Shown here piece by piece: positions 4,134 to 63,675 of a stretch of 64,000 bases of DNA. The stretch lies in the IMG/VR virus record IMGVR_UViG_3300025030_000041, positions 1 through 64,000 of that record; one strand, written 5' to 3'. The DNA comes from a virus. Both the position numbers and the translations under genes were made by a program. A model generated the notes under the pieces. It ran no database searches. It was not told where the DNA came from and saw nothing but the letters and a program-made list of their open reading frames with translations. Within the stretch, counting starts at the first letter, position 1. Every line of letters begins with the position of its first letter.

Positions 4134-4532
4134 TTATAAGTTTGGTATAGTATAAGCGCTACTAAATTTAGTTGTTAATTCGTGTATTAATGCATTGCCA
4201 GACCAAAAATATGGGTCTTCATCAATACTTACACTATACATTGCACCACCCTCTGGACAATAAAATGTTAAAGGCTTCCATTTATTTTTTGTAAATGCGT
4301 ACCATGTGTCATCTCTCTTTTCATATTTTATAATTTTAGTTGGATCAAACTGTAATTCATGAGTAACGATACTACCCTTAGCATGACACATATATTCATG
4401 CTCACATATTGCATCTATTACAATTCGTTTTTTATACAGAAAATTCTTAAATATGTAGTCGAGTATACGATCACTAAACAGCATTAATGTTAGTAGTATT
4501 AATACAATTGATAAAAATGTAAGTATACACAT
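4134..4532 (-). CDS. Hypothetical protein with an N-terminal transmembrane helix
   Basis: ORF in a co-directional minus-strand block; hydrophobic N-terminus MCILTFLSIVLILLTLMLF. Confidence 0.4.
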   Translation of the reverse strand: MCILTFLSIVLILLTLMLFSDRILDYIFKNFLYKKRIVIDAICEHEYMCHAKGSIVTHELQFDPTKIIKYEKRDDTWYAFTKNKWKPLTFYCPEGGAMYSVSIDEDPYFWSGNALIHELTTKFSSAYTIPNL

Positions 4533-4712
4533 ATCTTTTATTTTTAATATTTTAAAATTATTTTTTTTAATATATTACTATTTTATTTCAATAGTATCTA
4601 TATGGTTAATGCATATTTAATCTATATATTCGTCATAACGAAATATAAATTTTCCATGGAGCCCTTTATATTCACGGGGCATTCTATATTTTTCTACTTC
4701 TTTATGGTCTAT

Positions 4713-5869: not shown

Positions 5870-5993
5870 GATTTCTAGAGTTTAATTGTTAAACAATAAT
5901 AAAGAACTAATTACAATGTAAAATTAAGCAATAGATTTGATATATAAAAATAAATTTATAATAAAATATATAACTAATTGATACTCAATTTAC

Positions 5994-11942: not shown

Positions 11943-12122
11943 TTGGATTAGTCTTAAAATAAAATAATATTAAATTAATAGGTATACGTTTAGGTTGCAC
12001 TTTAAAAATCTGTGAAATTGATGTAAATATTAGTATTGTGTGTTGTATCAGCCCCTAACAAAGTATAACTGAAAGAGATGTGCACTTACCGTTATAAGTA
12101 ACATCAACATTTATGCACAACG

Positions 12123-12377
12123 CTACTTGACTGCTCCGAAATCAAAGTATGGAAGAATACGAAATTCACATTGATTTAGCTTGTAAATAGTATTTAGTTC
12201 TGCATCTTTTCTTTGATCTGCAAATTGCTCAATCACAGCAAGGGGGTCTTGTGTAATAATTAGAGTCTGCTTAGGCGTCTTTGAGTTAGTTGCTAAGTCA
12301 AATGTTTCGCCAATTTGAATTTCGAATTTACTCATTGTTTTTAAATTAAATTTAGTGTTGATAAACCCCCAGTACAT
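12123..12377 (-). CDS. Hypothetical protein (the true start may be the internal Met giving MSKFEIQIGETF...)
   Basis: ORF. Confidence 0.3.
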   Translation of the reverse strand: MYWGFINTKFNLKTMSKFEIQIGETFDLATNSKTPKQTLIITQDPLAVIEQFADQRKDAELNTIYKLNQCEFRILPYFDFGAVK

Positions 12378-13223: not shown

Positions 13224-13496
13224 TTAGAACTGCGGTTCTGGAACAGTATAAGGTAATGTTTTAGAATAGCTTAGTTCCCATTCATCAGTTCCTTTTCCTA
13301 TTAATGTTGGGATGTGTCCAATCATATTAAATATCAACTGTTTTGGTTCAACAAAAACTACATCACTTCCAATGCAAGTGTGTTTTACTTCAACAATAGC
13401 GTCTTCACCCAACATGAGGTTTGTCTGGTTTTTGATTGACCAAAACTTAGTTCCTTTGGGAATTAATCTATTTTCTCCTATTTTAATTTCGTTCAT
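13224..13496 (-). CDS. Hypothetical small protein (90 aa), bracketed by 14-bp inverted repeats
   Basis: ORF. Confidence 0.35.
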   Translation of the reverse strand: MNEIKIGENRLIPKGTKFWSIKNQTNLMLGEDAIVEVKHTCIGSDVVFVEPKQLIFNMIGHIPTLIGKGTDEWELSYSKTLPYTVPEPQF

Positions 13497-13502
13497 AAAA
13501 TA

Positions 13503-13516
13503 TTATTGTTGCTAAC
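13503..13516. repeat. Right arm of the 14-bp inverted repeat (ttattgttgctaac)
   Basis: See 13210-13223. Confidence 0.5.
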
Positions 13517-13518
13517 GA

Positions 13519-13592
13519 GGTATATATGCAATACCCTATTAAAGTTTATACTAAATTTTTATTTTTTGTGCAAGGGTACTGCATATATACCC
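13519..13592. promoter_or_regulatory. Long imperfect inverted repeat: ggtatatatgcaataccc (13519-13536) and gggtactgcatatataccc (13574-13592), with a 37-nt spacer. Candidate operator, long hairpin or replication-associated site
   Basis: Arms are reverse complements over 17-18 nt with 1-2 mismatches, in a minus-strand intergenic region. Confidence 0.4.
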
Positions 13593-13616
13593 AACCATTA
13601 GGTGCAATAAAAATTA

Positions 13617-13844: not shown

Positions 13845-14037
13845 ATTCCGTAATTTTTACAGCTTATAACAGCACCTAACAAAAATGGCTGCTACAAGCA
13901 TTGGTTTATAAATTGAAGTTTTATTTAAGCAGTCACTTCAGTTAGCTGCAAAAACATTATATGTAATTTAAAAACTCACCATGTGCCAAATTTTACATTC
14001 TCTATCTAATTTAATTTGTTGCTCTTTAATTTTGCTT

Positions 14038-14232: not shown

Positions 14233-14494
14233 AGCATTATATTATATTATTAAATAGTTAAACAATAAAATTAAATACAATGTAAAATTAAGAAATAGTT
14301 TTGACATTTAAAAATAAAATATTTAAATATTTTGTAACATATTGTCTTATAATACATTATTTTTATTAATTATATAAGAGTTTGGAGTTTTTCATATAAT
14401 TAAATTATGGAAATACTTATTAAAATGAGAATAAAAATAAAACAATTTATCTTATTTTTTATAAGAGATTAGAAACTTAAAAACATTATTCATT

Positions 14495-15391
14495 ATGGCA
14501 AAAATAACAAATTTATCTGATTTAATTATAAAAAAGTTTGAGAATAGTACTGATGTTAAATTAGTAAACACGTTTGCTGATATTAGTGATTATATATCAA
14601 CGGGTAATTACTTATTAAATGCTCAACTTAGTGGAAGTTTATTAGGTGGAATACCTAATAATAGAATTACGACTTTAGCCGGTGATAGCGGGACAGGTAA
14701 AACATATTTAGCTCTTAATATTTGTAGGGAAGCCCAGAGAAATGGATATTTTATAGTATATGTAGATACTGAAGCTGCAGTATCAAAAGATATTATGATG
14801 GATTTTGGTATAGATACTGACACATCTAAATTATTATATGCTGGAATATCAAATATTGAAGACTTCGGATTACTTGGTAATAATATTATACAAATATCGA
14901 AAGACCAAAGAGCTAAGGGAGAGACTCCTAAGATATTAATTATATTAGATTCCCAAGGTATGCTAAATTCAAAAAAAGAAATAGATGATTTAAATAAAGG
15001 AAAGAATGCATCTGATATGGGAACTAGAGCTAAAGAATTAAGAAAATTATACAGAAATATAACTTATGAATTTAGTAATAACGGAATTACCTTTATTCCA
15101 TTAAACCACACTTACTGTTTAACGAGTGGGCATAATATTCAAATGGGAGATAATTCTTTAAAAGATATTAAAGATATACAAATTGGTGAATATGTAAAAA
15201 CGTTAGAAGGTAATAAAGAAGTAATAAATACATTTAATTTTGAAAATTTAGAGTTAATAGAATTAACTTTGTCAGATAATACAGTTGTTAAATGTACAAA
15301 AGACCATAAATTTTTAGTATCTAGTAATAATGAATTAATTTGGAAAAATGCAGATGAATTAAATGAAAATGATGAAATTTTAAGTATATAG
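14495..15391 (+). CDS. uvsX: UvsX recombinase N-terminal extein (aa 1-207) fused to the N-terminal half of a split intein (IntN, aa 208-298)
   Basis: Collinear with T4 UvsX (LSGSLLGGIP..., Walker A GDSGTGKT, ...LDSQGMLNSKKE..., ...IPLNHTY). At Cys208 the sequence switches to a Hint N-terminal domain (CLTSGHNIQMGD..., block B TKDHKF). The ORF ends with tandem stops TAG TAA. Confidence 0.85.
   Translation: MAKITNLSDLIIKKFENSTDVKLVNTFADISDYISTGNYLLNAQLSGSLLGGIPNNRITTLAGDSGTGKTYLALNICREAQRNGYFIVYVDTEAAVSKDIMMDFGIDTDTSKLLYAGISNIEDFGLLGNNIIQISKDQRAKGETPKILIILDSQGMLNSKKEIDDLNKGKNASDMGTRAKELRKLYRNITYEFSNNGITFIPLNHTYCLTSGHNIQMGDNSLKDIKDIQIGEYVKTLEGNKEVINTFNFENLELIELTLSDNTVVKCTKDHKFLVSSNNELIWKNADELNENDEILSI
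15116..15388 (+). mobile_element. UvsX intein 1, N-terminal half (IntN, about 91 aa; standard split position)
   Basis: Starts at the Cys immediately after extein HTY. Contains block A (CLTSGHN) and block B (TKDHKF), then ends at tandem stop codons. Confidence 0.75.
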
Positions 15392-15417
15392 TAAATTATC
15401 TTAACTAATTAAAAAAA

Positions 15418-15543
15418 ATGAAAGACATGAATACAAAAAAAATTATTAAAAAACGTATAATTGAAAAACAAGAAAAAGTTTTTGATATTGAAGTAAAAGA
15501 TAGTCACCATTATTTTTTAGAAAACGGAGTGATTAGCCATAAT
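15418..15543 (+). mobile_element. UvsX intein 1, C-terminal half (IntC, 42 aa)
   Basis: Own ATG 26 nt after the IntN stop, in a different frame. Classic IntC architecture resembling the DnaE and gp41-1 split-intein C-halves. Confidence 0.75.
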
Positions 15544-16524
15544 TCAGGTGGAATGTATGAAGCAACTAAGCAAGGCGGCGGGTGTTTAATACCAGGGACT
15601 AAGATATATACATTCAATAATGTATTAAAATCAATAGAAGGTGTTGAGTCTGGTGATTATGTTAAAACCTTATGTGGATATAAAGAAGTTTTAGAAACAT
15701 ATACATTTGAAAAATCTACTATAAAAATAGAATTTGAAGACACCACAAATATAATATGTTCAGAAGACCATCGTTTTTTAATTTCAGGAGACTATACAAT
15801 TGAAAGTAATTGGAAAAAAGCTAAAGACTTAGCTAATAATGAAAATATTTTAAAAATTGAAAATAATAATATTTTCAATTTAAAAATTAAAAATATTAAT
15901 CATTTATATACACAAAAAGTTCATGATATTAGTGTTAAAGATGTACATCATTATATATCTGAAACTGGTATAATAAATCATAATTCAGGAAATACCTATT
16001 CTGCATCAACTATTTTATTTTTATCTAAGTCATCTCTTAAAGAGGACGGCCAAACTAAAACGGGAATTGTAGTAAGATCTAAAACACAAAAAAATCGATT
16101 AGCTAAACCAATTGATATAGAATTCCATATTAGTCATATTAGCGGAATGAATCCGTATGTTGGATTACAAGATTATATTAGTTGGGAAAATTGTGGAGTA
16201 GTTAGAGGTACTCTACTTACTAAAAAAGAATTTGAAAAAGATAAGTCAAATAACCAAAAAACATATCATGAATTCGAACACAATAATGAAAAGTATTATG
16301 TAATTCCGTCTGATAAAGCTAGAAATATAGTTATAAGAGACGGATGTAAAGAAGTTCCATTTAAAAAACTATTTACATCAGAAGTATTTACAGAAAATGT
16401 TATTAAAGAATTAGATGAAAAAGTAATACGACCTAAATTTAAATATGATAAAATTAAAGACTTATTATCTAATGAATTAACTGAAGTTTTTGGTGATACT
16501 ACAGACGATGAATCAGACGAATAA
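15418..16524 (+). CDS. uvsX: C-terminal half of split intein 1 (IntC, aa 1-42), then the UvsX C-terminal extein, which is interrupted by a second contiguous mini-intein (aa 56-189)
   Basis: IntC MKDMNTKKIIKKRIIEKQEKVFDIEVKDSHHYFLENGVISHN|S has blocks F/G and a terminal HN followed by +1 Ser. Extein SGGMYEATKQGGG and ...SGNTYSASTILFLSK...GIVVRSKTQKNR...IDIEFHISHISGMNPYVGLQDY are collinear with T4 UvsX. Intein 2 is CLIPGTKIY...SEDHRF...VHDISVKDVHHYISETGIINHN|S. Confidence 0.85.
   Translation: MKDMNTKKIIKKRIIEKQEKVFDIEVKDSHHYFLENGVISHNSGGMYEATKQGGGCLIPGTKIYTFNNVLKSIEGVESGDYVKTLCGYKEVLETYTFEKSTIKIEFEDTTNIICSEDHRFLISGDYTIESNWKKAKDLANNENILKIENNNIFNLKIKNINHLYTQKVHDISVKDVHHYISETGIINHNSGNTYSASTILFLSKSSLKEDGQTKTGIVVRSKTQKNRLAKPIDIEFHISHISGMNPYVGLQDYISWENCGVVRGTLLTKKEFEKDKSNNQKTYHEFEHNNEKYYVIPSDKARNIVIRDGCKEVPFKKLFTSEVFTENVIKELDEKVIRPKFKYDKIKDLLSNELTEVFGDTTDDESDE
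15583..15984 (+). mobile_element. UvsX intein 2: contiguous mini-intein (about 134 aa) with no endonuclease domain
   Basis: Cys1, block B SEDHRF, C-terminal block G IINHN, +1 Ser. The flanking sequence restores the UvsX alignment. Confidence 0.8.
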
Positions 16525-21498: not shown

Positions 21499-24400
21499 AT
21501 GGATATATCAAAACTTTTTTTCTTTAATAAAAACGGTGAAAATATAAATTTCACGTTTAATTCGTCTTTAAATAAGTATGAGAGTACTATTTATTTTGAT
21601 AAATTATCAAGTTCTCTATTTGATAATGAAAATCTTTATATTCTAGAAAAGTCCGGTGACTCATATATTTATCCTACTTTTACTGCTACCCAATCCTTAA
21701 AATTTAAATGGAAAACTCTATCTGATAAAGAGAATATCTTTTTATATGATATTGAAACAAGTAATGAAGATAATAACGACTATATTATAACAAAAGACGA
21801 AGTTTTAATATCATATGACCCATCGTTATATGGTGATAAAATTCCATTAAATATTAATATAGCATTTAACCCCTTGGATGAAACTAATTATGAAAGAGTA
21901 TTAGAAATATACTTGCTTGATATAGCTTCACCTGGAACATCCGATTTAATTGGAGAAATAAGTTTTTATGGTGAAGGAATAGACGAAGACGAAAGATATA
22001 GAATATGGTTAGCTAATTTTGGTATTAAATTTAATAGAGAGGATGCTTTAATATTAAAGGATTATGATATAAAAGAGGCTTTACCAAATTGGGAAATTAT
22101 TAATAACAAGCGGAAAGAAGCATTATTAACTAGGCCAGAGGTATACCCATATGTTGGAACATATAAAGGATTGACTAATATTATTAATTTTTTAGGGTTC
22201 AGAGATTTTTTATCAGTAAAAGAGTATTGGCAAAATAAAAACACAGATTCGCCATACTTTAATAAATTTACATTAATTGATATAAGTGATTTATTAGATG
22301 ATGGAAAAATAAATTCTATTGATTTAACTACATATAATAATAACGTTAAATTTACTCCTGAATTTAAAAAAACCGGATTATTAGGATTATATTATAAAAT
22401 AACAGATACAACGGGTGTAGAAGATGCTGACGGAATACCAGAGGTAGTACGAACTACTGAATTCAGCAATGACGAGATTTTATATAAACTTAATAGATTA
22501 AAAGATAAATTAAAAGATGAAATACTTCCAATTAATGTTAAAATTATAGATATAGTTGGTGAGTTTTTATTTTTTCAAAAATTTTCAATTAGAACTTGGA
22601 ATAATAGAGTTGAAATAAAAGATTTTCAAATTAACGAAAATTATGATATATCAGTTTATCCTTTAAATGATACTGAAGCATATTTATATGATCTTAAACC
22701 TCTATTAATAAAAATAAATCAATCTTCTACTAATGTAAATTTCGGAAATTATATATTTAATAATAGCCAGTCAAATCCATATGACTGGTCTCAAAAATAC
22801 CCGCCAACTGATATTCCTTTATTAATTGAATCAATAAAGACTTTTTATAATGAAATACAACAGTCTAAAAAAGATGGATTAAATGAACCATTACCGTGGA
22901 ACTTCGGAGATGAACCTGAAAATATAATTGGATGTCCAGTTATATTTAAAGTTAAGTTTGACGAAATTACATGGGATATATTATCAAATTCAACATGGGA
23001 TAGTCTAGACGATTTTTATACATGGGATACTATAAACTTTAAATCAATTTATGAAATAGAATGGAATATAAGTAAAAAAATCGGAACACCTTACTCTTTT
23101 ACTTATCGAGGATATATAAAAGATTTACATACATTACCTCATTTTTTACCATATGAAGGAGAATATGACGTCTTTGCTAAACTATATGATCTTAACTCTG
23201 GTCATAGCATAAATTATGAAAATAAAATTATAAATGTTAAAAAAATAGAACCTGAAATAATCGCATTATCTAGAATTGAAGATAAATTTGGCGATACTTG
23301 GGATGACTTATCTAATGTAACATGGGATGAAATAGAATCATCATACTGGTATAATCCTATTGTAAACATAGTTAATCAAAATAATAACGAGATAGATTTA
23401 CAAAGAAATTTATACGAGTGGGATTTTTATAAAGATAAAATAAAAGATGCTAAAATATTTAATGACGACACTTTTATATATGAATCCTTAAATACTAGCC
23501 TGCATTCTCTTAAAAATTTATATGGTATACCTAAAAAAGGAGGAAGTGATGTATACGAATGGACATGGGATGATTTTGAAAATGCAACATGGGATGACTT
23601 ATTTCATATGAAATGGTATCATATGGTATATCACTCTGATTTTTTAGCAGGTTTTCTTATTAAGAAACTTCCAAGAAAAGGAGATATTATACAAATGAAT
23701 AAATATTCAGATTTTGTATTTCAAACTACTATGCTAACTTTACAAGATGCAATCGATGAATTGAATTTATCTAGCCATAATGGAATATCGTTATTTAAAT
23801 ATGAGGTTCAAAGTTATCATAAAAAATATAAAGTAACATTAACAAAAAGTACAACTGATTTTACATATGACTTAACGATTAATGAATCTAATATTATATA
23901 TATTGCAACTCCTTTACAAGATATAAATGAAATTAGAGACGCATTGATTAATCTAATTAATAATGAAATTACCCAACATGTTACGGCAATTAGTGCTTCA
24001 AATGATAGTTTTTTAATAATCGGTGATGTGGAAGAAGATGACTATATATTATCAGTAACTAGCCCAAGTTTAATAGATTTTGAATTAATACAAGATCCTG
24101 GTCCATTTATTAGTGCGACTGCAAAAGACTTTGGAAAAGAAAGTTATGTAATTATAAATTATATTTCATCTGGCGATGACGACGACTCTAGTCCATTCTC
24201 ACCAAGAACCTCTAATTTCTTAGAAGGCAACAAATACTCGTATAACGAACCTATTTGGATTTATAATAAATCTCAAATTGAATCTTTAAATAATAAATAT
24301 ATAAGTCTAGATATTGAAAATTTATTTGTTGATGCACCATTTAGCGATATTGCTAATGGAAATACTAATAATATTCAGTATTGGATAGATAATAAATATA

Positions 24401-24804
24401 TTAAGCATAATACTGAAACTGATGAACAGACTGGATTTATACCGTCTATAGTAGATACAAATGTATTTAATTTAATACAGCTTAAAGTATATGAAGATTC
24501 GTTCATTATACCTAAATGGTGTCCGGTATTTTTTGTTATTAATAATGTTCCAGGTAAAACTGAATTTGTATGGACATTATATGATGAGGATAATAATAAA
24601 AAATTAATTCAGATTAAGGATGTTCCATTTTTTATATGGAGATTTAATGAATTAGGGCAGTATAGAATAGACGTACAAATTACAGATAATAAAGGAAATA
24701 TTTATAATAAAAGTTTTTCTAAATTTGTAAATGTTAAATCTAAAAATGATTATATTTCTTTTATAGAACGAGAAATTAATAAGCTTTCCAAATTAATTCT
24801 TTAA
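21499..24804 (+). CDS. Large (1101 aa) putative virion structural protein (baseplate or tail-fibre class) with recurring aromatic TWD[DE] motifs
   Basis: Long ORF with repeated motifs (ITWDILSNSTWDSLDDFYTWD, NVTWDEIESSYWY, DTWDDLSNVTWDE, ATWDDLFHMKWYHM); no enzymatic motifs were seen. Confidence 0.45.
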   Translation: MDISKLFFFNKNGENINFTFNSSLNKYESTIYFDKLSSSLFDNENLYILEKSGDSYIYPTFTATQSLKFKWKTLSDKENIFLYDIETSNEDNNDYIITKDEVLISYDPSLYGDKIPLNINIAFNPLDETNYERVLEIYLLDIASPGTSDLIGEISFYGEGIDEDERYRIWLANFGIKFNREDALILKDYDIKEALPNWEIINNKRKEALLTRPEVYPYVGTYKGLTNIINFLGFRDFLSVKEYWQNKNTDSPYFNKFTLIDISDLLDDGKINSIDLTTYNNNVKFTPEFKKTGLLGLYYKITDTTGVEDADGIPEVVRTTEFSNDEILYKLNRLKDKLKDEILPINVKIIDIVGEFLFFQKFSIRTWNNRVEIKDFQINENYDISVYPLNDTEAYLYDLKPLLIKINQSSTNVNFGNYIFNNSQSNPYDWSQKYPPTDIPLLIESIKTFYNEIQQSKKDGLNEPLPWNFGDEPENIIGCPVIFKVKFDEITWDILSNSTWDSLDDFYTWDTINFKSIYEIEWNISKKIGTPYSFTYRGYIKDLHTLPHFLPYEGEYDVFAKLYDLNSGHSINYENKIINVKKIEPEIIALSRIEDKFGDTWDDLSNVTWDEIESSYWYNPIVNIVNQNNNEIDLQRNLYEWDFYKDKIKDAKIFNDDTFIYESLNTSLHSLKNLYGIPKKGGSDVYEWTWDDFENATWDDLFHMKWYHMVYHSDFLAGFLIKKLPRKGDIIQMNKYSDFVFQTTMLTLQDAIDELNLSSHNGISLFKYEVQSYHKKYKVTLTKSTTDFTYDLTINESNIIYIATPLQDINEIRDALINLINNEITQHVTAISASNDSFLIIGDVEEDDYILSVTSPSLIDFELIQDPGPFISATAKDFGKESYVIINYISSGDDDDSSPFSPRTSNFLEGNKYSYNEPIWIYNKSQIESLNNKYISLDIENLFVDAPFSDIANGNTNNIQYWIDNKYIKHNTETDEQTGFIPSIVDTNVFNLIQLKVYEDSFIIPKWCPVFFVINNVPGKTEFVWTLYDEDNNKKLIQIKDVPFFIWRFNELGQYRIDVQITDNKGNIYNKSFSKFVNVKSKNDYISFIEREINKLSKLIL

Positions 24805-29905: not shown

Positions 29906-30718
29906 ATGAAAACCGCAAAAATAGATAAATCTACATATTCATTAGTATTAGATCCGTTATATTTAATTAATTCAAAATGCTCAACTGATAAAGAATGGTT
30001 AGAATATACTATACTAGGAGCATTACAAAAATATAAAGAAAAACTAGATAATAATAATATACAAGTATTCAGTGAAATATTTTTACATTATTTTAATCTG
30101 TCGTCTTTAATTAACCTTAGTATAATTTTTGATAAAAAACACAAGTCACATGATATTTATACTAATAAAGATTTATCAAAAATAATAGATATTTTAAAAT
30201 ATGATACATCAGAACGAGAATACCTTATTAATATATACAATTGGATAAAGGAAAAGTTAAGAGATGTTTTCATTGAGGCAATAGAAAAACATATTAAAGT
30301 ATATGGTGGGTTAAATCTTCTTGTTAAGAATAAACAAATACATTTAACAGACGACATTTATATATTCTGCAAAAGTAATCCAAATTTATATTCAGAAATA
30401 TGGAGAATAAAAATAGATGAACGGTGTAATTTTATGTCATCTATTAAATTTATAGATGTTATAAAAGAAGATTCTAATTCTAATTATACTAAATTATCGC
30501 AATATGTTAATAAATTAAAGAATATTGAAAATAAAATTAATAATAATAATATAATAATAGTAAATAATGAATCTGCTATTAATTATAATGATATAATCTA
30601 TATAATTAGAGATATTTTATTTTTAAATAGAAATTTAGATGAAATTTTTGAAACAAAAGGTTTCGATAATGACATCCTTTATATATTATTAGAATTTATA
30701 AATAATGGTGGATTTTAA
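29906..30718 (+). CDS. Hypothetical protein
   Basis: ORF. Confidence 0.35.
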   Translation: MKTAKIDKSTYSLVLDPLYLINSKCSTDKEWLEYTILGALQKYKEKLDNNNIQVFSEIFLHYFNLSSLINLSIIFDKKHKSHDIYTNKDLSKIIDILKYDTSEREYLINIYNWIKEKLRDVFIEAIEKHIKVYGGLNLLVKNKQIHLTDDIYIFCKSNPNLYSEIWRIKIDERCNFMSSIKFIDVIKEDSNSNYTKLSQYVNKLKNIENKINNNNIIIVNNESAINYNDIIYIIRDILFLNRNLDEIFETKGFDNDILYILLEFINNGGF

Positions 30719-45183: not shown

Positions 45184-46482
45184 TTATTTGTTTTTAATTA
45201 ATTCTTTTAAATCATTAATAATTATATGAGCTGACTTTTCATATGACTCGTAATCATATCCTATTTTTTTACAAAGACTACTATAGTTAGTATACTCGGT
45301 ATTATTTGTATTTATTATTTCAACTGCTTTTATAATACATTCTGATAATGAGTTAACCTCAATTTCATTAGATTCATTTACTTCACAAAAGAATGGGTAA
45401 TTTGTATTATTTGAATGTTTAAATTTATACCAATAATTATTAACTTTTGGCATAATTGTAATATTTCCTGCTATTAGGGCTTCACAATGAGTTACTCCGC
45501 CATGAACCTCATTTGTAAATAAATTACAACTCACACGTGCTCTATTTATAAAAGTTAAATAATCTTCTCTTGACCAATTTAAATTATTAGGTAGTACCTC
45601 TACTGTATTATTAGATAAAGTATTAATTAAACTTAATTGTTCTTCTGTTACCTTTCTAGTTGGATTAAGCATTATTGCTTTAAATGGTATATTAGTTTTA
45701 GATTTTGCAAGTCCTACTGCTTCAGCGAACTTATGATAATTATTATATCTATTCGCTGAATCTGATATTCTATTACCAAAATAGATAGTTGTTTCATCAA
45801 ATTTCGAAACACTAGAATATTTTAATACTTCTTTAGCCCATACCCCAATATTCCAGCTTGTTGTTTTTTTAATTAAATTTCTATTTTTATAAAATGTATC
45901 ATACGCGTCTAACGATTCTCTTTCATTTTCTTTAGATTGAAATGCTGTTAAATTTGAATTATTAAAGCTTTCCATTTGTCTTTCAAAATATGTAATCTGT
46001 TCTGACACTTTTTTAGATACAGGAGTATCCATAAAATAATTAGTACTAACAATTGGAATATTTAATTTTAATTCATAAAATAAAGTATTCCAGTTTTTAG
46101 TTAATGTATTTTGGTCATTAATCATTACGTCACATTCTTTTAATAAATTATATTGTTTTTTCCAAAATATATAATCAAAATGGTATCTAGTATTAGACGG
46201 CCCAACTGGAGAATCAAATTCTATAAAAGTTATTCTAGAGTGATATTTTTGTTCAAACATACTATAGTATGTCCAATACTCTTTGGATAATCTAATGTCT
46301 GGAATAGCAATTAAAAAAGATATATTACTATCATTTTCTAAAATTTCTGATATTATTCCAATACATATATTCATACATGCGTCTGTACTTAGTATAAAGT
46401 TCTTTCCATCATTATTACTTATTTGAGTAGCATAAAATACTTTCATAACACTTTTTTTGAAACAATATATTTGAAAACTCAT
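45184..46482 (-). CDS. Putative glycosyltransferase (GT-B-like C-terminal half); candidate DNA or surface-glycan sugar transferase
   Basis: C-terminal NEVHGGVTHCEALIAGNITIMPK resembles the E-x7-E / nucleotide-sugar binding region of GT-B enzymes. The call is weak. Confidence 0.35.
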   Translation of the reverse strand: MSFQIYCFKKSVMKVFYATQISNNDGKNFILSTDACMNICIGIISEILENDSNISFLIAIPDIRLSKEYWTYYSMFEQKYHSRITFIEFDSPVGPSNTRYHFDYIFWKKQYNLLKECDVMINDQNTLTKNWNTLFYELKLNIPIVSTNYFMDTPVSKKVSEQITYFERQMESFNNSNLTAFQSKENERESLDAYDTFYKNRNLIKKTTSWNIGVWAKEVLKYSSVSKFDETTIYFGNRISDSANRYNNYHKFAEAVGLAKSKTNIPFKAIMLNPTRKVTEEQLSLINTLSNNTVEVLPNNLNWSREDYLTFINRARVSCNLFTNEVHGGVTHCEALIAGNITIMPKVNNYWYKFKHSNNTNYPFFCEVNESNEIEVNSLSECIIKAVEIINTNNTEYTNYSSLCKKIGYDYESYEKSAHIIINDLKELIKNK

Positions 46483-46590
46483 ACAATGTTTTATAAAATT
46501 TTAGCGTTTTTAGAAATAATGTGTATAATTAAATAATATAATGTATTAAATGCCAATCATTTATAGTATACTATTATATTTAATTTGGGA

Positions 46591-46641
46591 AAATATTTTA
46601 ATATATTAAAACTATTTCTTATTTTTGTATTAAATATAACG
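46591..46641 (+). repeat. 51-nt conserved box, copy A: aaatattttaatatattaaaactatttcttatttttgtattaaatataacg
   Basis: 49 of 51 nt identical to 49677-49727. It is followed by a GC-rich structured segment (46642-46700). Confidence 0.6.
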
Positions 46642-46798
46642 GCCGGTACTTTATGCCCAGTTTGCCATACGGACACTTAACATTTAGCAGTAGAGTTGAT
46701 GACAAACTTGTATAAAGTAATTGTTATAAAATCGGTGTGGTTAGTTTAGTAGAATGTTAATTAAAAATTTAAACAAAACTATTTAAAACAAAAAAAAG

Positions 46799-47212
46799 AT
46801 GACGACAAATAATTTAAGAGAAAAAACAGTTTTACAAATTACAGAAATTGTAAAAGAATATTGTAAAACTGCAGAACCAACAAATGTGTATTTGGCTTTC
46901 AAAAAAGAGGTGGACAAACCATTGATGATTGAAACAAAATACCCAATACCTAATGAAAATATTACAGTAATGATTTCGGATATTAGAAAAGATTGGCAAT
47001 TACCATTAGCAGGAACAAAGGATATTGGAAACCCAAAATTAAAAGAGATGAGCCGAGAAGATTTTGAAAAAACATTTGATATATTATCATATACTGTACA
47101 GGAAGAAAGCCAAATAATTATGAAAGTAATTGATAAATTGGGATTACATAAATGGGAACATGAAGGAAAATTAAAACAGTTTCATTACTATCAAGGAAGT
47201 TATAACAAATAG
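46799..47212 (+). CDS. Hypothetical protein
   Basis: ORF; GC content higher than the window average. Confidence 0.4.
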   Translation: MTTNNLREKTVLQITEIVKEYCKTAEPTNVYLAFKKEVDKPLMIETKYPIPNENITVMISDIRKDWQLPLAGTKDIGNPKLKEMSREDFEKTFDILSYTVQEESQIIMKVIDKLGLHKWEHEGKLKQFHYYQGSYNK

Positions 47213-47224
47213 GGTGTAGGCTTT

Positions 47225-47395
47225 TTATTTATTAAATTTTTTAAAAGAAATGATAATACGACGTGATAAAGTAAGCCTTTTTGCCGAGCCTGTGTTATAA
47301 GGCGAAGCGAACAGTTGGTTTTTCGCCAATGGCTTATAATGGTGTCAGGCTTGGCGAAGTGATTAAACCTGAAGCTAAATAGAATAACTAAACTT
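47225..47395 (+). ncRNA. Candidate structured RNA: a GC-rich intergenic element with multiple local stems
   Basis: ggcgaa...ttcgcc and cgccaa...ttggcg 6-bp stems, aagcc/ggctt pairings, and locally elevated GC in an otherwise AT-rich genome. No family assignment is possible by eye. Confidence 0.25.
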
Positions 47396-47410
47396 TAAAA
47401 TTAAGAACAA

Positions 47411-47746
47411 ATGACAAATAGAATTACTGAACATTCATTTTGCCAAACACATGTTAGTGGCAGTTTATCTTTGGAAACGATTGCTGATTATGTTACAAAA
47501 AAAGATTTATCTGTGCATAAAAAAATATGTAATTTGTGGTTAAAATCAGGAAACAAAGCAGAAGATTTTCCTAAACTACCGCCTTGTTGGATGGATGTTG
47601 AAATAACATTAAAAAATGGTAAAAAATATAAATCTTTTTTAGTGAGTATAAATAATTGTGGTGATACTCAATTCGTGATTAATAGAATGTTTAAAGAAAG
47701 GATTTATTTAGATATGGATGAAGTTGTTAGTTGGGAGTTCGTTTAA
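47411..47746 (+). CDS. Hypothetical protein
   Basis: ORF. Confidence 0.4.
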   Translation: MTNRITEHSFCQTHVSGSLSLETIADYVTKKDLSVHKKICNLWLKSGNKAEDFPKLPPCWMDVEITLKNGKKYKSFLVSINNCGDTQFVINRMFKERIYLDMDEVVSWEFV

Positions 47747-47873
47747 ATTGCAACTAGCAGTTTTGCGTATAAAAAATCGTTTTAATGTTTTTTATACGAT
47801 GTTAGCAGTATGTATTATTTTTGTTTTTACCTTATTAAAAAAATAACTATGGAAGTATTTATCAAAAAAACAT

Positions 47874-48215
47874 ATGACTATAAGTGATATACCTGAAAAA
47901 TGGGTAATTATAAAAATAGATGGCCCTATTGGAACATTTTATAAAGTATTTAGTACTTGGGCAGGTGGGTATTTAGGTACAGATAAGTGGAAGCTCAATT
48001 CTGGAATTGATAAAGTTAATACGGATGATGAGTATTATTATTTTATTGGGTTTAGTGGAAGCTGCTATAAGTGTCACAAAAAAACATATGGATTAGCTAC
48101 TCAATTTGGGTTTAGAGTTTTAAATAATATTGTAGAAAAAAGCGATAGGAAGATTAGCGTATTAGAAGATAAGCCAGATTGGGAGTCTTTTTTTAATTTA
48201 ATAAATAATTTTTAA
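47874..48215 (+). CDS. Hypothetical protein
   Basis: ORF. Confidence 0.4.
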   Translation: MTISDIPEKWVIIKIDGPIGTFYKVFSTWAGGYLGTDKWKLNSGIDKVNTDDEYYYFIGFSGSCYKCHKKTYGLATQFGFRVLNNIVEKSDRKISVLEDKPDWESFFNLINNF

Positions 48216-48217
48216 AT

Positions 48218-48787
48218 ATGAAATTTAACGACTGGTTTACTACTAGATTAATTGTTAATAAGTTTCCATTACCTTCTGAAATTTTAAAAGCACACTATGA
48301 CTACATTATTAATGTTAGTGATGAATACTCAGGTGAGTGCCATGACACTGCAATGGAAAGAGGTATTAAATATTTTTGGTTTCCAATGAATGAGCGAGTA
48401 GGTGATATGGGTTTAAACAGTTTATATGCAGCATTAAAAATAATATGGCAAGTCGAACAAGAGGGAGCTTCTGTATTACTTCATTGTCATGCTGGAGTTA
48501 ATAGAAGTCCAACAGTGAGAGATGCGTACTATTTTTTACGTACAAAAAAACATAGAGAAGAAATTGTGTTTGATGAAGAAATTGAAGAACGATTAACTGA
48601 ATGGTTAAATTTGGGTAAATCAATTAATGGAAAAAATAACATGCTACTTGAAAACATTAGAAAAGGACACTTACCCTCTATTAATAAAATGGAATCTTTT
48701 TTGAGACATTGTGAAGTTCAATTTAAAAAAGAAGAAACTGATAACAGCGGCGGACTTGACAAGTGTAAAGGTAATGCTGGGATTTAG
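48218..48787 (+). CDS. Dual-specificity / tyrosine protein phosphatase (CX5R)
   Basis: LLHCHAGVNRSPT = HCxxGxxRS P-loop of PTP/DSP enzymes. Confidence 0.65.
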   Translation: MKFNDWFTTRLIVNKFPLPSEILKAHYDYIINVSDEYSGECHDTAMERGIKYFWFPMNERVGDMGLNSLYAALKIIWQVEQEGASVLLHCHAGVNRSPTVRDAYYFLRTKKHREEIVFDEEIEERLTEWLNLGKSINGKNNMLLENIRKGHLPSINKMESFLRHCEVQFKKEETDNSGGLDKCKGNAGI

Positions 48788-48847
48788 CAATTAAAAGAAT
48801 CAGTAAGTATTTTGAAATAAATAAATTTATAAAAAATATTTTTTTGT

Positions 48848-49597
48848 GTGAAACCTAAAAAAAAGAAATTAACCCGAGAAGATGAACAAGAATTATTAGA
48901 AATAACTAATAAAACATTTAATCCAGACATTTTATCAAGTATACATATTGAAATAAAATGTAAATCAGAAAATCAAAAGAAATTATTAAATTCAATAAAA
49001 GAAAATGATGTTACTATATGTATAGGACCAGCTGGATGTGGTAAAACTATATTATCATGTGCGGAAGCTTTAATTTTATTAAAAACACATAGAGACATAT
49101 ACTCAAAAATTGTTTTAACTAAATCTATAACTCAACTTCGTAATGAAGATATAGGAATATTACCAGGGGATGAGAAAGATAAATTAAAATTATATATGGC
49201 ATCATATATGGATTCATTTAATAAATTAATTGGTGAGTACTTAACTAATAAATTAATTGAGTTAGGCCTAATTAAATTTGAAGCTCTAGGTACATTAAGA
49301 GGACGGTCTTTTGATAATGTTATTCTAATAAGTGATGAATTTCAAAATGTTAATCATGATAACGCTAAAACTCTATTAACTAGAATGTCACAAAATAGTA
49401 AATTTATTATTTTAGGGGATACTGACCAAATAGATATTAAAAATAAAAAAGATAGTTCTTTAGAGTTTATTCATAAAAAAATAAATGAAAATCCAATGGA
49501 TGGGGTTGGAGCAGTCGAATTAACAAATAGTGATATTGTAAGACATAAATTAACTTCATATTTTATAAATTTATTTAACGAACTTAAAACTTTATAG
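48848..49597 (+). CDS. phoH: PhoH-like ATPase
   Basis: ICIGPAGCGKTILS Walker A, DEFQN Walker-B-like, and overall PhoH layout and length. Confidence 0.75.
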   Translation: MKPKKKKLTREDEQELLEITNKTFNPDILSSIHIEIKCKSENQKKLLNSIKENDVTICIGPAGCGKTILSCAEALILLKTHRDIYSKIVLTKSITQLRNEDIGILPGDEKDKLKLYMASYMDSFNKLIGEYLTNKLIELGLIKFEALGTLRGRSFDNVILISDEFQNVNHDNAKTLLTRMSQNSKFIILGDTDQIDIKNKKDSSLEFIHKKINENPMDGVGAVELTNSDIVRHKLTSYFINLFNELKTL

Positions 49598-49676
49598 CGT
49601 AATCATTTATTATTTAGTAGATTGATTATCAATTAATTATATTTACTTGTTATATTTAGTTCAAAAATAAAGTACT

Positions 49677-49727
49677 AAATATTTTAATATATCAAAACTA
49701 TTTCTTATTTTTGTATTGAATATAACG
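49677..49727 (+). repeat. 51-nt conserved box, copy B
   Basis: See copy A. Confidence 0.6.
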
Positions 49728-49737
49728 TTTTGCAGGT

Positions 49738-49830
49738 AGGCGATAGTGAGGCTTACCACAAAGTTTAAATCAAAGCACTCAGGCTCATAACGGCAATATC
49801 GCCTACCTGATGTTAGGTGTCTGTAAAAAA
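49738..49830 (+). ncRNA. Candidate structured RNA: a 13-bp perfect stem (caggtaggcgata / tatcgcctacctg) enclosing about 50 nt of GC-rich sequence, immediately downstream of conserved box B
   Basis: Perfect long-range complementarity 49741-49753 / 49805-49817. Confidence 0.3.
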
Positions 49831-49864
49831 ATAAATTTAGTGTGGCAATTAAACAATTTACAAA

Positions 49865-50092
49865 ATGAAAATTAAGAAACTTATCAGCCAACACCGCAGG
49901 GATTTCACCGCCTTAATGGAATGTGAATTTTGCCAACATCAAGAAATGGATAATTCAGGTTATGATGACCGATATTATCACGACAATGTAATACCAAATA
50001 TGAAGTGTAAAAAATGCGGTGAATCAACGATAAGTAAAGGCGGTGAAATTGAAAGGACCCCAACTAAATATCCAGAGGGATTCCAAATTTGA
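49865..50092 (+). CDS. Small zinc-ribbon protein (CxxC...CxxC)
   Basis: CEFCQH ... CKKCGE. The antisense ORF 49661-49894 is rejected. Confidence 0.35.
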   Translation: MKIKKLISQHRRDFTALMECEFCQHQEMDNSGYDDRYYHDNVIPNMKCKKCGESTISKGGEIERTPTKYPEGFQI

Positions 50093-50125
50093 GTGTTGGG
50101 TGCAGTTGGAAAATAAAATAAAAAT

Positions 50126-50677
50126 ATGATTGATTACAAAATAATATCAGATTCAATTAATTACTATGAAAGTAAAGGGTTTATTAGGATTGAAACCCCT
50201 TGGACTGTTTCAGAGTATATTGATAATTTAACTAAGCCAAAAGACATGTTATCTTTTCAATTAAAACATAACAGTAAGTGCTTAGTAGCTTCTGGCGAAC
50301 AGAGTTTTTTATACCTATATTTAAAAGACTTCTTACCAAAGGGACAATTTCAAACAACAACACCATGTTTTAGATTTGAAAGTTTTGACTATTCACACAC
50401 TAAGTATTTTATTAAAAATGAACTAATAAAAACCGATGTTGTAAATAATGCTGAACTTGATAAAGTAGTAGAATATTGTTTTAATTTTTTGAAAGGATGT
50501 ATACCTGAAATAGAAATAATTCAAACTAGCATAGGGTTTGATATTGAGTATAAAGGTAATGAATTAGGTTCATACGGAATAAGAGAAAATGAGTTTTTGA
50601 AATGGATATATGCAACTGGTTGTGCTGAACCAAGATTGAGTAAAATAATTAATTTGTATAAAAATGGGTTATCATAA
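50126..50677 (+). CDS. Small protein with class-II aminoacyl-tRNA-synthetase-like core motifs (AsnA / aaRS-core-like)
   Basis: TPCFRFESF (motif 2-like fRxE) and C-terminal ATGCAEPRLSKI (motif 3-like G-x-G-x-x-x-E/R). Tentative. Confidence 0.25.
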   Translation: MIDYKIISDSINYYESKGFIRIETPWTVSEYIDNLTKPKDMLSFQLKHNSKCLVASGEQSFLYLYLKDFLPKGQFQTTTPCFRFESFDYSHTKYFIKNELIKTDVVNNAELDKVVEYCFNFLKGCIPEIEIIQTSIGFDIEYKGNELGSYGIRENEFLKWIYATGCAEPRLSKIINLYKNGLS

Positions 50678-51163: not shown

Positions 51164-51850
51164 TTGTCATCTATTTTCATAGGCATTGATTATTCAATAA
51201 AAAACTCTTCTTTTTGCTGCACTGACTTTACTACTTTTAAGTGGGGTTCAATAGTATCTGATTATAAATTCACAAAAAATAAAACTAGATTATTAGAAGA
51301 GTTAGATTCATTATCTGATACTTCTATAAAAATATGTGAGGAAACTAAGCCTCACTTTGTTACATATTCAGCTGAACAAAGGTTTAAATTAGATAGATAT
51401 TCAAAGAATATTACACATTTTATAAATTTAATTAAATCTAATTTAAATGGTAAACTTCCTATTGTAGCAATTGAAGGAATTTCATTTGCGTCTAAAGGTA
51501 ATATTTTAATTGATTTATCTATTTCTACTGGTATTTTGCGGTATAAAGTCTTGACTGAATTATTAAATAATGATTCATCAAGACTTTTTATTTTTTCACC
51601 AGGTGAAATGAAAAATGCTATGACATGCAAAGGTAATGCTGATAAATTTGCAATTTTTAATAAATTTAAAGTTGACCCAGAATTAGATACTGTAAAAAAG
51701 TCAGAGCTTTATAAATTTATTATAGAAAATGAAGACCGAATTAATAATGGTAAATTAATAGAAAGCCCAATAAATGACTTAATTGACTCATATTTAGGAG
51801 TATTGACTCTTTTTAAGAGCATTAAAAATAATATAAAAAATAATGGTTAA
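51164..51850 (+). CDS. Putative RuvC-like Holliday-junction resolvase (RNase H fold); TTG start
   Basis: N-terminal IFIGIDYS (catalytic Asp strand) and later VAIEGISF (second acidic residue), as in RuvC-family resolvases. Weak. Confidence 0.35.
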   Translation: MSSIFIGIDYSIKNSSFCCTDFTTFKWGSIVSDYKFTKNKTRLLEELDSLSDTSIKICEETKPHFVTYSAEQRFKLDRYSKNITHFINLIKSNLNGKLPIVAIEGISFASKGNILIDLSISTGILRYKVLTELLNNDSSRLFIFSPGEMKNAMTCKGNADKFAIFNKFKVDPELDTVKKSELYKFIIENEDRINNGKLIESPINDLIDSYLGVLTLFKSIKNNIKNNG

Positions 51851-52253
51851 AAGAAAACGGCTAGTTAAAACTGATAAATATTATATTTCAAATAAAGAAT
51901 TTAGCGATGAGATTATTTTATGTAAAGAGAAAAATGAATTGACACCTGCTGCTGTTAATTTTTTTATAAAATTAGCAAATCGTACAATACGAACAAAAAG
52001 GCTTCATCATAAAAATCAAGAAGATATGGAAGATTGTATACAAACTGCTCTTGAAAATTGTTTAAAGTATTGGAGAAATTTTGATCCAACTGTTTCTCAA
52101 TATGGGCCTAATGCTTTTTCATATTTTACAACTGTTGTAAATAATGCATTTGCTTTATCATATAATAAAATGTATAAACTAAAGGGATCAGACGGTCCAG
52201 TTAAGCATATCTCACTAAATTTATCAGGTGATGATGAAATATACTCAATTTAA
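51843..52253 (+). CDS. 55: Late-transcription sigma factor, T4 gp55-like
   Basis: GPNAFSYFTTVVNNAFALSYNKMYK matches T4 gp55 [23 protein letters not shown]; an upstream NFD block and the size (136 aa) also fit. Confidence 0.6.
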   Translation: MVKRKRLVKTDKYYISNKEFSDEIILCKEKNELTPAAVNFFIKLANRTIRTKRLHHKNQEDMEDCIQTALENCLKYWRNFDPTVSQYGPNAFSYFTTVVNNAFALSYNKMYKLKGSDGPVKHISLNLSGDDEIYSI

Positions 52254-62124: not shown

Positions 62125-62236
62125 TTAATTTAATATCAATTAGTTATATTTTTATTTAAAAATAGGTGAAACAAATTAAAGATAAATTAATATATTTGCA
62201 GTATAACAATCATTATTAACTTAAAACAATTAAAAA

Positions 62237-63131: not shown

Positions 63132-63429
63132 AAACAGAATTATGTTAGAAAACGAAAACTTGAATGAACCACAAAAAACGCAATTGAATATAAGTGAGGT
63201 TAGCCACAATTGTATTTGTTGCGGAAAAGAAATAAAGAAACTTGATGGACTGCCAAAAGATAAGGATTGGGAAGGTATGTGGAATGGTGGAATAGTTGAA
63301 AAGATAAGTGCTGGGTATGGCAGTTTACTTGATGGAGATATGTATGTTTTGGCTATATGCGATGACTGTGTAAAGTTGAAACAGCTAAAATACGTTGGTA
63401 ACTATATGTTCCCAGACAATTGTGACTAA
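63132..63429 (+). CDS. Small zinc-ribbon protein (CICCGK...CDDC); the track ORF 63022-63429 probably starts at this internal Met
   Basis: MLENENLNEPQKTQLNISEVSHNCICCGKEI...LAICDDCVKL. Confidence 0.3.
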
Positions 63430-63675
63430 CTGATGACACTAACAGTCAGGTGGGGATTAAATGCACCGTACTTTCACTTGACGATAAGCTTCATTAGACA
63501 CAAGATAGCTTCAATGTGACACAAGCCCCCACTTGCTGTTATTGTATGTTATGGAGCGTTTATTGCCATCACAAATAATTATAAAAGATAATATGATTTA
63601 ACATTTAAGAATCCTAAAAAGTTAAGCAAAATAAAAATAGTAATCTAAATAAATAAAAAGAAAGGGATTAATTTA

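Follow-up and report, generated by a model that had tools for sequence, protein, structure and literature searches.

A family of hairpin elements, two of which lie directly behind copies of a 51-nucleotide (nt) box, was investigated in a 64,000-nt stretch of viral DNA comprising positions 1-64,000 of the IMG/VR record IMGVR_UViG_3300025030_000041 (the window, whose coordinates are used below; comparison loci from viral contigs or prokaryote genomes are numbered L001, L018, L141 etc.). It is moderately probable that these elements are attC-like cassette boundaries, i.e. single-stranded DNA hairpins recognised by a XerA-like recombinase, which were placed behind a duplicated promoter box. The elements are members of one family with a covarying structure, they occur in arrays, are linked to recombinase genes in relatives, show a folding bias that follows the element, and coincide at their 5′ ends with modular junctions. 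According to the explanation proposed here, two separate things, a promoter module and a hairpin element, would have been joined at ATAT|AACG: the first ~45 nt of the box would represent the core of a lineage-specific promoter for two rightward transcription units, while the hairpins would delimit small accessory-gene cassettes and, as single-stranded DNA, would be recognised and cut by a XerA-like tyrosine recombinase, as attC is by the integron integrase, with the result that cassettes would move between phages and hosts. The window holds two accessory-gene regions, at 12.0-14.3 kb (minus strand) and 46.6-50.1 kb (plus strand), in which small genes are separated by family sites; two to three consecutive sites are found at 12.0-14.0 kb (minus strand) and four at 46.6-49.8 kb (plus strand). 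The genes located right after the best sites have a GC content of 0.33-0.36 compared to 0.25 for the window, an excess that imported cassettes would be expected to show. In this phage the attC-like sites are putatively active, and we infer that recombination occurs at them.

The family has the form TAACG-UUUU-GCRG...stem...CYGC-U-GUUAK. In each member the base, TAAC/GTTA, is invariant, one strand carries a 5-nt bulge (GTTTT), and the stem, which covaries, is topped by a variable tip, the stem being laid out as GCRG/CYGC, followed by P1, an internal loop and P2. Viral contigs were first scanned for TTTTGCAG-N55-85-TGTTAGGTG and then searched with two home-made covariance models (R1 and R2), whose E-values are rough, as their calibration was shortened. 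The pattern scan returned chance matches along with true members, the latter always with TAACG in front. Pattern scan and covariance models together recovered no fewer than 60 members from viral contigs and gave 190 matches across 100 prokaryote loci, many of these sequences sharing descent, so that counts of members are not independent. With a hand-defined structure applied to 27 sequences, pairing reached 92.8% and compensatory changes were present at 10 of the 20 pairs, compared to 21-58% pairing in slid controls. For 63 members aligned by the model, an alignment fitted to that model and thus favouring the structure, 94% of positions were paired and 16 of the 20 pairs showed compensatory changes, while slid partners paired at 25-51%. 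The counts of G-U and A-C combinations in the first alignment (10 and 8, respectively) were uninformative. Outside the core the motifs ATTGC (at -9 to -5 before TAACG) and GCWGU (at +4 to +8 after GTTA) are placed symmetrically, 3 nt from the core; a pairing between them was considered and dismissed (62% paired, no covariation), and they were treated as sequence motifs. At the position of a -33-type element upstream of the members no conservation was seen beyond ATTGC at -9 to -5. The Rfam covariance scan proposed in the first-pass annotation of this DNA gave no RNA identity: there was no match at gathering score in the window, none on the elements at E ≤10 and none in the loci of 10 relatives, and the family is absent from Rfam. 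The same annotation had seen no tRNA by eye, in agreement with ARAGORN, which reported 0 tRNA or tmRNA genes in the window; disrupted tRNAs were likewise not found.

Family members recur every 0.3-1.5 kb between co-oriented open reading frames (ORFs), the spacing in viral contigs being 0.3-0.9 kb, with the elements on the coding strand. Dense arrays include ten sites in 12 kb in L141, seven in 5 kb in L045, seven in L183 and five in L191. In viral contigs there are mostly 0-25 nt between the stop codon of the upstream ORF and the element (in 13 cases out of 56 the TAA of TAACG itself serves as this stop codon), and the next ATG is found 5-40 nt past the element; in a form of 130-140 nt the start codon is located within the apical loop and the 3′ arm belongs to the coding sequence, and several such ORFs look like DNA methyltransferases. 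The arrays of L141 (1748-11256), L045 and L030 comprise several ORFs of similar size (265-290 aa), which start inside the apical loop of the long-form element, the 3′ arm of the hairpin encoding a conserved N-terminal peptide (...FCQTxV...); at least three of these ORFs resemble DNA methyltransferases, as judged by eye from a DLIYCD-type N-terminal stretch. When one genome of each prokaryotic species was scanned, more than 120 matches emerged, mostly in Bacteroidota (including the Flavobacterium covae chromosome, Chitinophaga and Pedobacter), with others in archaeal and candidate-phylum metagenome-assembled genomes (MAGs), and these matches again form arrays. A form of 75-77 nt, TAACGTTTTGCGGATAAAAGAAGTTGCCGAAGGCAATTTGGG...CTTTTATCCGCTGTTAK, is nearly identical across MAGs (L221, L208, L200, L194, L174, L212 and others) assigned to Methanophagales, Methanoperedenaceae, Altarchaeum, Atribacteria, Dehalococcoidia, Nitrospirota, Thermotogaceae and further groups, which suggests either that this form has spread between domains or that the MAGs have in common a mobile or viral carrier that was binned into them.

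In cells as well as in viral contigs, recombinase genes are repeatedly found next to the arrays. A tyrosine recombinase heads the array, upstream of the ORFs and on the same strand, in L155, L183, L203, L209 and L244, and is present near arrays in L243, L194 and L185. The best NCBIfam match of the array-linked recombinases is NF040815, described as 'site-specific tyrosine recombinase/integron integrase' (225 bits, cutoff 220), and archaeal XerA proteins are their closest solved relatives. They belong to a family of thousands of proteins, which in Bacteroidota carry the names XerD or site-specific integrase. The viral recombinases, encoded just downstream of arrays, have 37-42% identity to the cellular enzyme; in these viral loci all genes are flipped relative to the element orientation, compared to the cellular arrays. 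The cargo of cellular cassettes includes an EcoRI restriction-modification pair, an FRG-domain protein, Fic/DOC and a LinB-like nucleotidyltransferase, and that of viral arrays includes methyltransferase-like ORFs.

The first-pass annotation had described the segments behind the box copies, together with two further GC-rich islands, as small structured RNAs driven from a shared box. Under an RNA-level explanation, the box would supply a phage mRNA on which the elements serve as structured 5′ leaders or as hairpins between cistrons. They might then be processing sites, mRNA stabilisers, or devices that display the start codon within an A-rich open loop, the host being one that does without Shine-Dalgarno initiation. 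Several features point in this direction: the elements are on the coding strand in viral contigs and in the window, they precede the next ATG at short distance or hold it in the apical loop as described above, elements A and B (Table 1) stand directly behind the promoter-like box, and the sense strand, rich in G-U pairs, folds better than the antisense strand in 59 of the 64 viral and window members, by ~6 kcal/mol. An RNA leader was favoured on the basis of this last result and was demoted once the bias was also found where the strand is antisense to genes. With RNA parameters, the TAACG strand is the better folder in 31 of 34 viral members and in 115 of 143 cellular ones; with DNA parameters, the corresponding numbers are 29 of 34 and 117 of 143. 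The flanking ORFs, however, are mostly sense to this strand in viral contigs, by 38 to 2, and mostly antisense to it in cellular genomes, by 187 to 33. As the same bias exists where the strand is antisense to the genes, it belongs to the element and is not imposed via the mRNA, and a bias that follows the element favours a single-stranded DNA recombination site like the integron attC over a structured RNA. Such a bias is expected of a site acting as a folded single DNA strand, as the attC bottom strand does (PMC9892861, PMC9668308). The linkage to recombinases, the lack of any Rfam match, the lack of a U-tract terminator after any element and the flanking motifs without covariation also speak against RNA function, and we regard the RNA explanation as unlikely and the hairpins as probably not small RNAs. 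Of the earlier proposal, the family and the shared promoter-like box thus stand, whereas the RNA or leader identity is not supported, in view of the Rfam result, the antisense arrays and the recombinase linkage; the evidence favours another option it listed, namely target or recognition sites for a site-specific element.

The junctions between the window and its relatives can be placed at the 5′ end of the hairpin. Window 49720-50112 and L002 2437-2835 have 84.5% identity over the only stretch common to both, which consists of element B and the 75-aa gene behind it, and in L002 this gene is followed by the next element. The homology to L002 begins at AT|AACG (49720) and the homology to L018 stops at 49723, i.e. 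one starts where the other ends, so that two homologies meet at ATAT|AACG, where the comparative junctions of the window fall. Near-identical copies of element B are present before different genes in L002, L039, L068, L081, L144 and L184; copies of element B′, ~90-95% alike, occur in front of unrelated genes in at least ten viral contigs, and the intergenic region 13845-14037 (minus strand) has its start and end in common with element B.

These observations have also to be weighed under the assumption that the elements are passive linkers, conserved sequences between genes whose neighbours are shuffled by ordinary homologous recombination, as proposed for the PeSL cassettes of T4-like phages, without a dedicated recombinase, and which in this phage would be relics of cassettes acquired from other phages or from hosts. 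Such linkage would account for the finding that copies of one element type, 90-95% alike, have unrelated genes on either side, as well as for the lack of a recombinase in the window, the presence of the 75-aa gene without element B in L001, the 3′ junction with L002, which is not at a core site, and the decayed copies at 47202-47311, 12042-12126 and 63426-63565. Homologous recombination, however, needs neither the strong purifying selection on pairing that is apparent from the compensatory changes nor the strand-specific bias. The repeated presence of recombinase genes near cellular and viral arrays also speaks against this explanation; moreover, the defining PeSL layout is absent. We attribute a low probability to passive linkage. 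Ordinary recombination nevertheless contributes too, as the junctions are mixed.

PeSL (promoter-early stem-loop) cassettes carry a stem-loop terminator just before an early promoter of sigma-70 type, behind which come a Shine-Dalgarno sequence and the start codon (Arbiol et al. 2010, PMC2839356; Comeau et al. 2014, PMC4122927). The likeness to the window consists of repeated modules of promoter and hairpin which flank small variable genes in hyperplastic regions, at junctions of insertion, deletion or exchange. The window hairpin, in contrast, follows the promoter-like box instead of preceding it, lacks a U tract, is a much longer structure and shows covariation, and the family elsewhere is mostly box-free and is accompanied by a recombinase. 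Sigma-70-like sites in 46400-50000 (23 compared to 25.9 in shuffles) are not in excess and no terminator-like site was found there; in view of this, of the hairpin's position downstream of the box and of the lack of Shine-Dalgarno sequences, membership in PeSL was rejected and the system was kept as an analogy.

The 51-mer was reported in the first-pass annotation as two copies too similar to be due to chance, which is supported here: the copies at 46591-46641 and 49677-49727 (plus strand) differ at two positions (49 of 51 identical), they are the only matches in the window at ≤3 mismatches, and 100 shuffles gave 0 matches. Their likeness ends at both borders of the 51-mer. As one unit the box was only partly upheld, since the final 6 nt (ATAACG) form part of the hairpin element, being its invariant 5′ end, and the box proper comprises the first ~45 nt. 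Box A sits in a divergent intergenic region, between a leftward block that ends at 46482 and a rightward block that starts at 46799, and box B between the PhoH gene and the 75-aa gene. The box contains TATTTTTG (= TAnnTTTG, the -7 motif of Bacteroidetes promoters), with TTTA 19 nt upstream, as read from the sequence. A third copy was found in the viral contig L018, of which 4437-4561 has 92.8% identity to window 49599-49723 over 125 nt, an intergenic stretch ending at the box; the rest of this 10-kb locus, flanking genes included, has no match to the window. The L018 copy carries no hairpin element and diverges from the window at the same base. No further copies were found in IMG/VR, nor any in metagenome contigs, in which 11 matches to a looser pattern were all by chance. 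The box is probably a lineage-specific, AT-rich promoter module heading two rightward transcription units, as suggested by its position and motif. Most family members elsewhere have no box in front and start 0-25 nt past the upstream stop codon, which means that the box is not a general partner of the elements.

The 51-mer might itself serve for recombination or insertion instead of being a promoter only; it would then be a counterpart of attI combined with the cassette promoter Pc, and cassettes would enter at ATAT|AACG. In favour of this, the two copies border on an element at an identical base, and the L018 box, without an element, diverges at that base. Against this, three box copies are known in all (two in the window and one in L018, IMG/VR and metagenome contigs having been searched), none of them adjoins a recombinase gene, and no element separates the box-core relatives at 14284 and 5920 from the genes behind them, which leaves an attI-like role very improbable. 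Other sequences resembling the box were observed as well. A second promoter-like repeat, 5905-5980 and 14269-14344 (minus strand), is 78% alike over 76 nt and lies upstream of small minus-strand genes; it has the box core AAAaCTATTtCTTAATTTT, followed by ACATTGTA... where the 51-nt box has GTATTRAATATAACG. In addition, a motif TATCAATTA(G/A)TTATAT was found ~50-60 nt upstream of promoter-like boxes at ~49630-49645 (plus strand), 5870-5993 (minus strand) and 62125-62236 (plus strand).

Canonical attC sites carry RYYYAAC and GTTRRRY cores, and the integrase, IntI, which has a specific additional domain, recombines them at G|TT. The hairpin family resembles attC in several respects: both are imperfect inverted repeats with an AAC...GTT core that fold as a single strand, one strand folding better than the other, and in cellular arrays the better-folding strand is antisense to the ORFs, as is the canonical bottom strand. 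In both cases small accessory genes, most of them without a promoter of their own, are separated by tandem copies in one orientation, the first core often contains the stop codon, and the cargo comprises DNA methyltransferases, restriction-modification and resistance-type genes in bacteria, archaea and phages. The differences are that the linked recombinase of the hairpin family is XerA-like, without the IntI insertion, and co-directional with the array rather than divergent, that the family has ~22 conserved bases (TAACGTTTTGCRG / CYGCTGTTAK), and that the phage sites are flipped relative to the genes. Strict membership among canonical integrons was ruled out, since the linked recombinases do not have the IntI insertion. 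Clusters of attC lacking an integrase (CALINs) have been reported in virulent phages, including Polaribacter phage P12002L, by Qi et al. 2023 (PMC9892861); the R2 match in this phage, at 29994-30057 (minus strand) between two methyltransferase genes, is exactly the oligonucleotide P12002L_attC1, a HattCI-predicted site of that study. Ghaly et al. 2022 (PMC9668308) reported attC across archaeal and bacterial phyla, with near-identical sites in both domains, and such cross-domain sites fit the wide spread of the hairpin family.

A further comparison concerns the rAID-1 arrays of Bacteroidales, in which a XerD-family recombinase is combined with integron-like intergenic repeats (Ross et al. 2019, 10.1101/471110). 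The likeness is one of layout, i.e. a tyrosine recombinase heading a co-directional array of small genes with repetitive intergenic sequences 'reminiscent of integrons' and a skewed GC content. This layout is found in the relatives L155, L183, L203, L209 and L244 and not in the window. The hairpin arrays differ from rAID-1 in their occurrence in Flavobacteriia, Chitinophagia, Sphingobacteriia, other phyla and phages, and in their cargo, which consists of restriction-modification, Fic and nucleotidyltransferase genes and not of identified type VI secretion system (T6SS) immunity genes.

A number of observations weigh against the explanation of the elements as attC-like sites behind a promoter box. 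The linked recombinases score 205-209 bits on TIGR02249 (integron integrase), with a cutoff of 265, and their alignment to VchIntIA (2a3v) skips the IntI-specific integrase residues 188-243, with 12 residues in their place. No tyrosine recombinase gene is present in the 64-kb window; the sites may be inactive relics or may rely on a host enzyme. P12002L_attC1 is reported as the one of six phage sites that gave no verified recombinants with the class 1 integrase IntI1, while the five other phage attC sites did give IntI1 recombinants (PMC9892861). The unpaired spacer is asymmetric (5 nt compared to 1 nt), unlike that of canonical attC, and although TAAC/GTTA is nearly invariant, the remaining RYYYAAC/GTTRRRY positions score 2.5-2.8 of 4, which is approximately chance. 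At its right-hand border (50112), the stretch common to the window and L002 does not coincide with an element core. Simple site-specific movement of cassettes does not explain why the same element type with its 3′ tail, 90-95% alike, is found before unrelated genes. The phage elements are sense to the genes and some enclose a start codon, which makes an added or alternative role at the RNA level possible. Finally, the full Bacteroidetes motif TTTG-N18-22-TAnnTTTG is not enriched in the window (3 found, 4.5 expected), so that it is position and a partial motif that argue for the box as a promoter.

The attC-like explanation can be tentatively extended: Bacteroidota phages, the very large AT-rich phage of the window among them, would join an integron-like exchange of cassettes by means of XerA-like recombinases without the IntI domain, some of them phage-encoded. 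Since the phage sites are flipped, the folding DNA strand is also the mRNA strand, and the sites might double as recombination site and as a 5′ leader that presents the start codon, with the box as cassette promoter and perhaps as insertion point. Taken as a whole, this extended version is possible and rather unlikely.

Table 1. Location and description of the hairpin elements, box sequences and associated genes (window coordinates, unless a comparison locus is given; scores are those of covariance models R1 and R2)
Feature	Position	Strand	Description
Element B′	13853-13960	-	Best-scoring member of the window; between two small minus-strand genes; R1 91.1 bits, R2 84.7 bits
Element B	49722-49829	+	Clear member, type B; R1 79.8 bits, R2 69.4 bits
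Element A	46636-46740	+	Diverged member; ATAAC/GUUAU base, long imperfect stem; R2 32.2 bits, E 1.2e-4; R1 16.5 bits, E 0.12
Family member	13499-13601	-	Upstream of 90-aa gene 13224-13496; R2 52.7 bits, E 3e-9; subtype as L088 1808-1909
Long-form member (3′ half of island C)	47336-47470	+	R2 37.3 bits, E 8e-6; architecture as in L141, L045, L030
Possible decayed member (5′ half of island C)	47202-47311	+	R2 15.6 bits, E 0.59, not significant
Short member	47754-47818	+	Upstream of 113-aa gene; R1 28.2 bits, E 9e-5; R2 26.6 bits, E 2e-3
Weak candidate member	12042-12126	-	R2 19.1 bits, E 0.1
Island D, weak candidate member	63426-63565	+	R2 18.6 bits, E 0.13; ends in GCTGTTAT
Box A proper	46591-46635	+	AT-rich, promoter-like first 45 nt of the 51-mer
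Promoter module B	49599-49723	+	Whole intergenic stretch from PhoH to element B; includes box B 49677-49721
Box-core relative (AAAACTATTTCTTAATTTT)	14284-14302	-	Upstream of first small gene of minus-strand array
Weaker box-core relative	5920-5938	-	Precedes small minus-strand gene
75-aa gene (phrog_14808)	49865-50092	+	Carried with element B; GC 0.36 compared to 0.25 for the window
Viral XerA-like recombinase	L039 4348-5148	-	Short (~266 aa); co-directional with array
Viral XerA-like recombinase	L081 2202-3002		Short (~266 aa); co-directional with array
Viral XerA-like recombinase	L142 1686-2486		Short (~266 aa); co-directional with array
Viral XerA-like recombinase	L144 2043-2864		Short (~266 aa); co-directional with array
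Viral XerA-like recombinase	L071 3165-3923		Short (~266 aa); co-directional with array

Besides elements A and B, at least four more copies in the window are members of the family, and the copies differ in how well they are preserved (Table 1). The four segments named in the first-pass annotation are mostly accounted for in this way. A GC-rich segment does follow each box copy, as had been noted, and the islands that had been named have a GC content of 0.38-0.43 compared to 0.25; the segment after box copy A starts with ggccggtactttatgccc.... The 13-bp long-range stem described behind copy B is likewise present, as a perfect stem (49733-49745 / 49797-49809) around 51 nt. The strong structure attributed to all of these segments applies to element B, which folds at -32.9 kcal/mol (z = -3.4 compared to shuffles), whereas A and the islands C (~47.3 kb) and D (~63.5 kb), taken alone, are not better folded than shuffles (z -0.6 to -1.2). 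Island C (47225-47395), proposed as a further member, is a composite: its big hairpin is formed between two neighbouring elements, to which the weak or decayed 47202-47311 contributes its 3′ arm and 47336-47470 its 5′ arm. In the latter element the apical loop holds the start codon (47411) of a 111-aa ORF and the 3′ arm is coding. For island D (63430-63560) the match to the family is weak and its membership is doubtful; the stop codon of a 135-aa gene is here the TAA of TAAC.

The genes encoded in the window include those for PhoH, a T4 gp55-like late sigma factor, portal, DNA polymerase, an SbcC-like protein, DNA ligase and helicase, and its source is a large AT-rich phage (GC 0.25). The closest relatives of the portal protein, with 30-40% identity, are those of uncultured huge phages and Prevotella Lak phages, and among GenBank phages no close relatives were found of the 8-kb region or of element B′. 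No Shine-Dalgarno sequences are visible upstream of the window genes, the leaders being A-rich instead, and TATAAATA-like motifs precede the structural genes; on these grounds the phage host is likely to belong to the Bacteroidota. The TATAAATA-like motifs are located 15-30 nt 5′ of the start codons at 18301, 21499, 24854, 26727, 28055 and 29462 (plus strand) and resemble T4 late promoters, which fits the presence of the gp55-like sigma factor gene at 51843-52253.

Some further features were recorded in the window. At 14495-16524 (plus strand) a RecA/UvsX-like ATPase gene is apparently interrupted by intein sequence: ORF 14495-15391 comprises the RecA domain followed by the beginning of an intein splicing domain, ORF 15418-16524 contains two stretches of intein splicing sequence, and a 76-nt direct repeat (15473-15548 / 15914-15989) codes for two '...HNS' intein C-terminal motifs. 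The 1101-aa ORF at 21499-24804 (plus strand) contains the repeat family D1, with four copies of the unit ACATGGGATGA... at 22969-23629. Finally, a 183-aa protein encoded at 50126-50677 (plus strand) matches phrog_4806, annotated as histidyl-tRNA synthetase (E 1e-35), and has no Pfam match.

The covariance model obtained here describes a family of cassette boundaries that is not comprised in Rfam, and the strand test offers a means of telling a DNA hairpin from an RNA function. For genome annotation it follows that GC-rich, well-folding islands in AT-rich phage genomes are not necessarily RNA genes. If the sites are active, this phage and many uncultured Bacteroidota phages would trade small accessory genes with one another and with host arrays, through a dedicated exchange route that is independent of sequence and that would carry methyltransferases, anti-defence candidates and small proteins of unknown function. 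This would help to account for the mosaic 'hyperplastic' regions of large phages, and would tie these regions to host arrays with restriction-modification, toxin and resistance genes.

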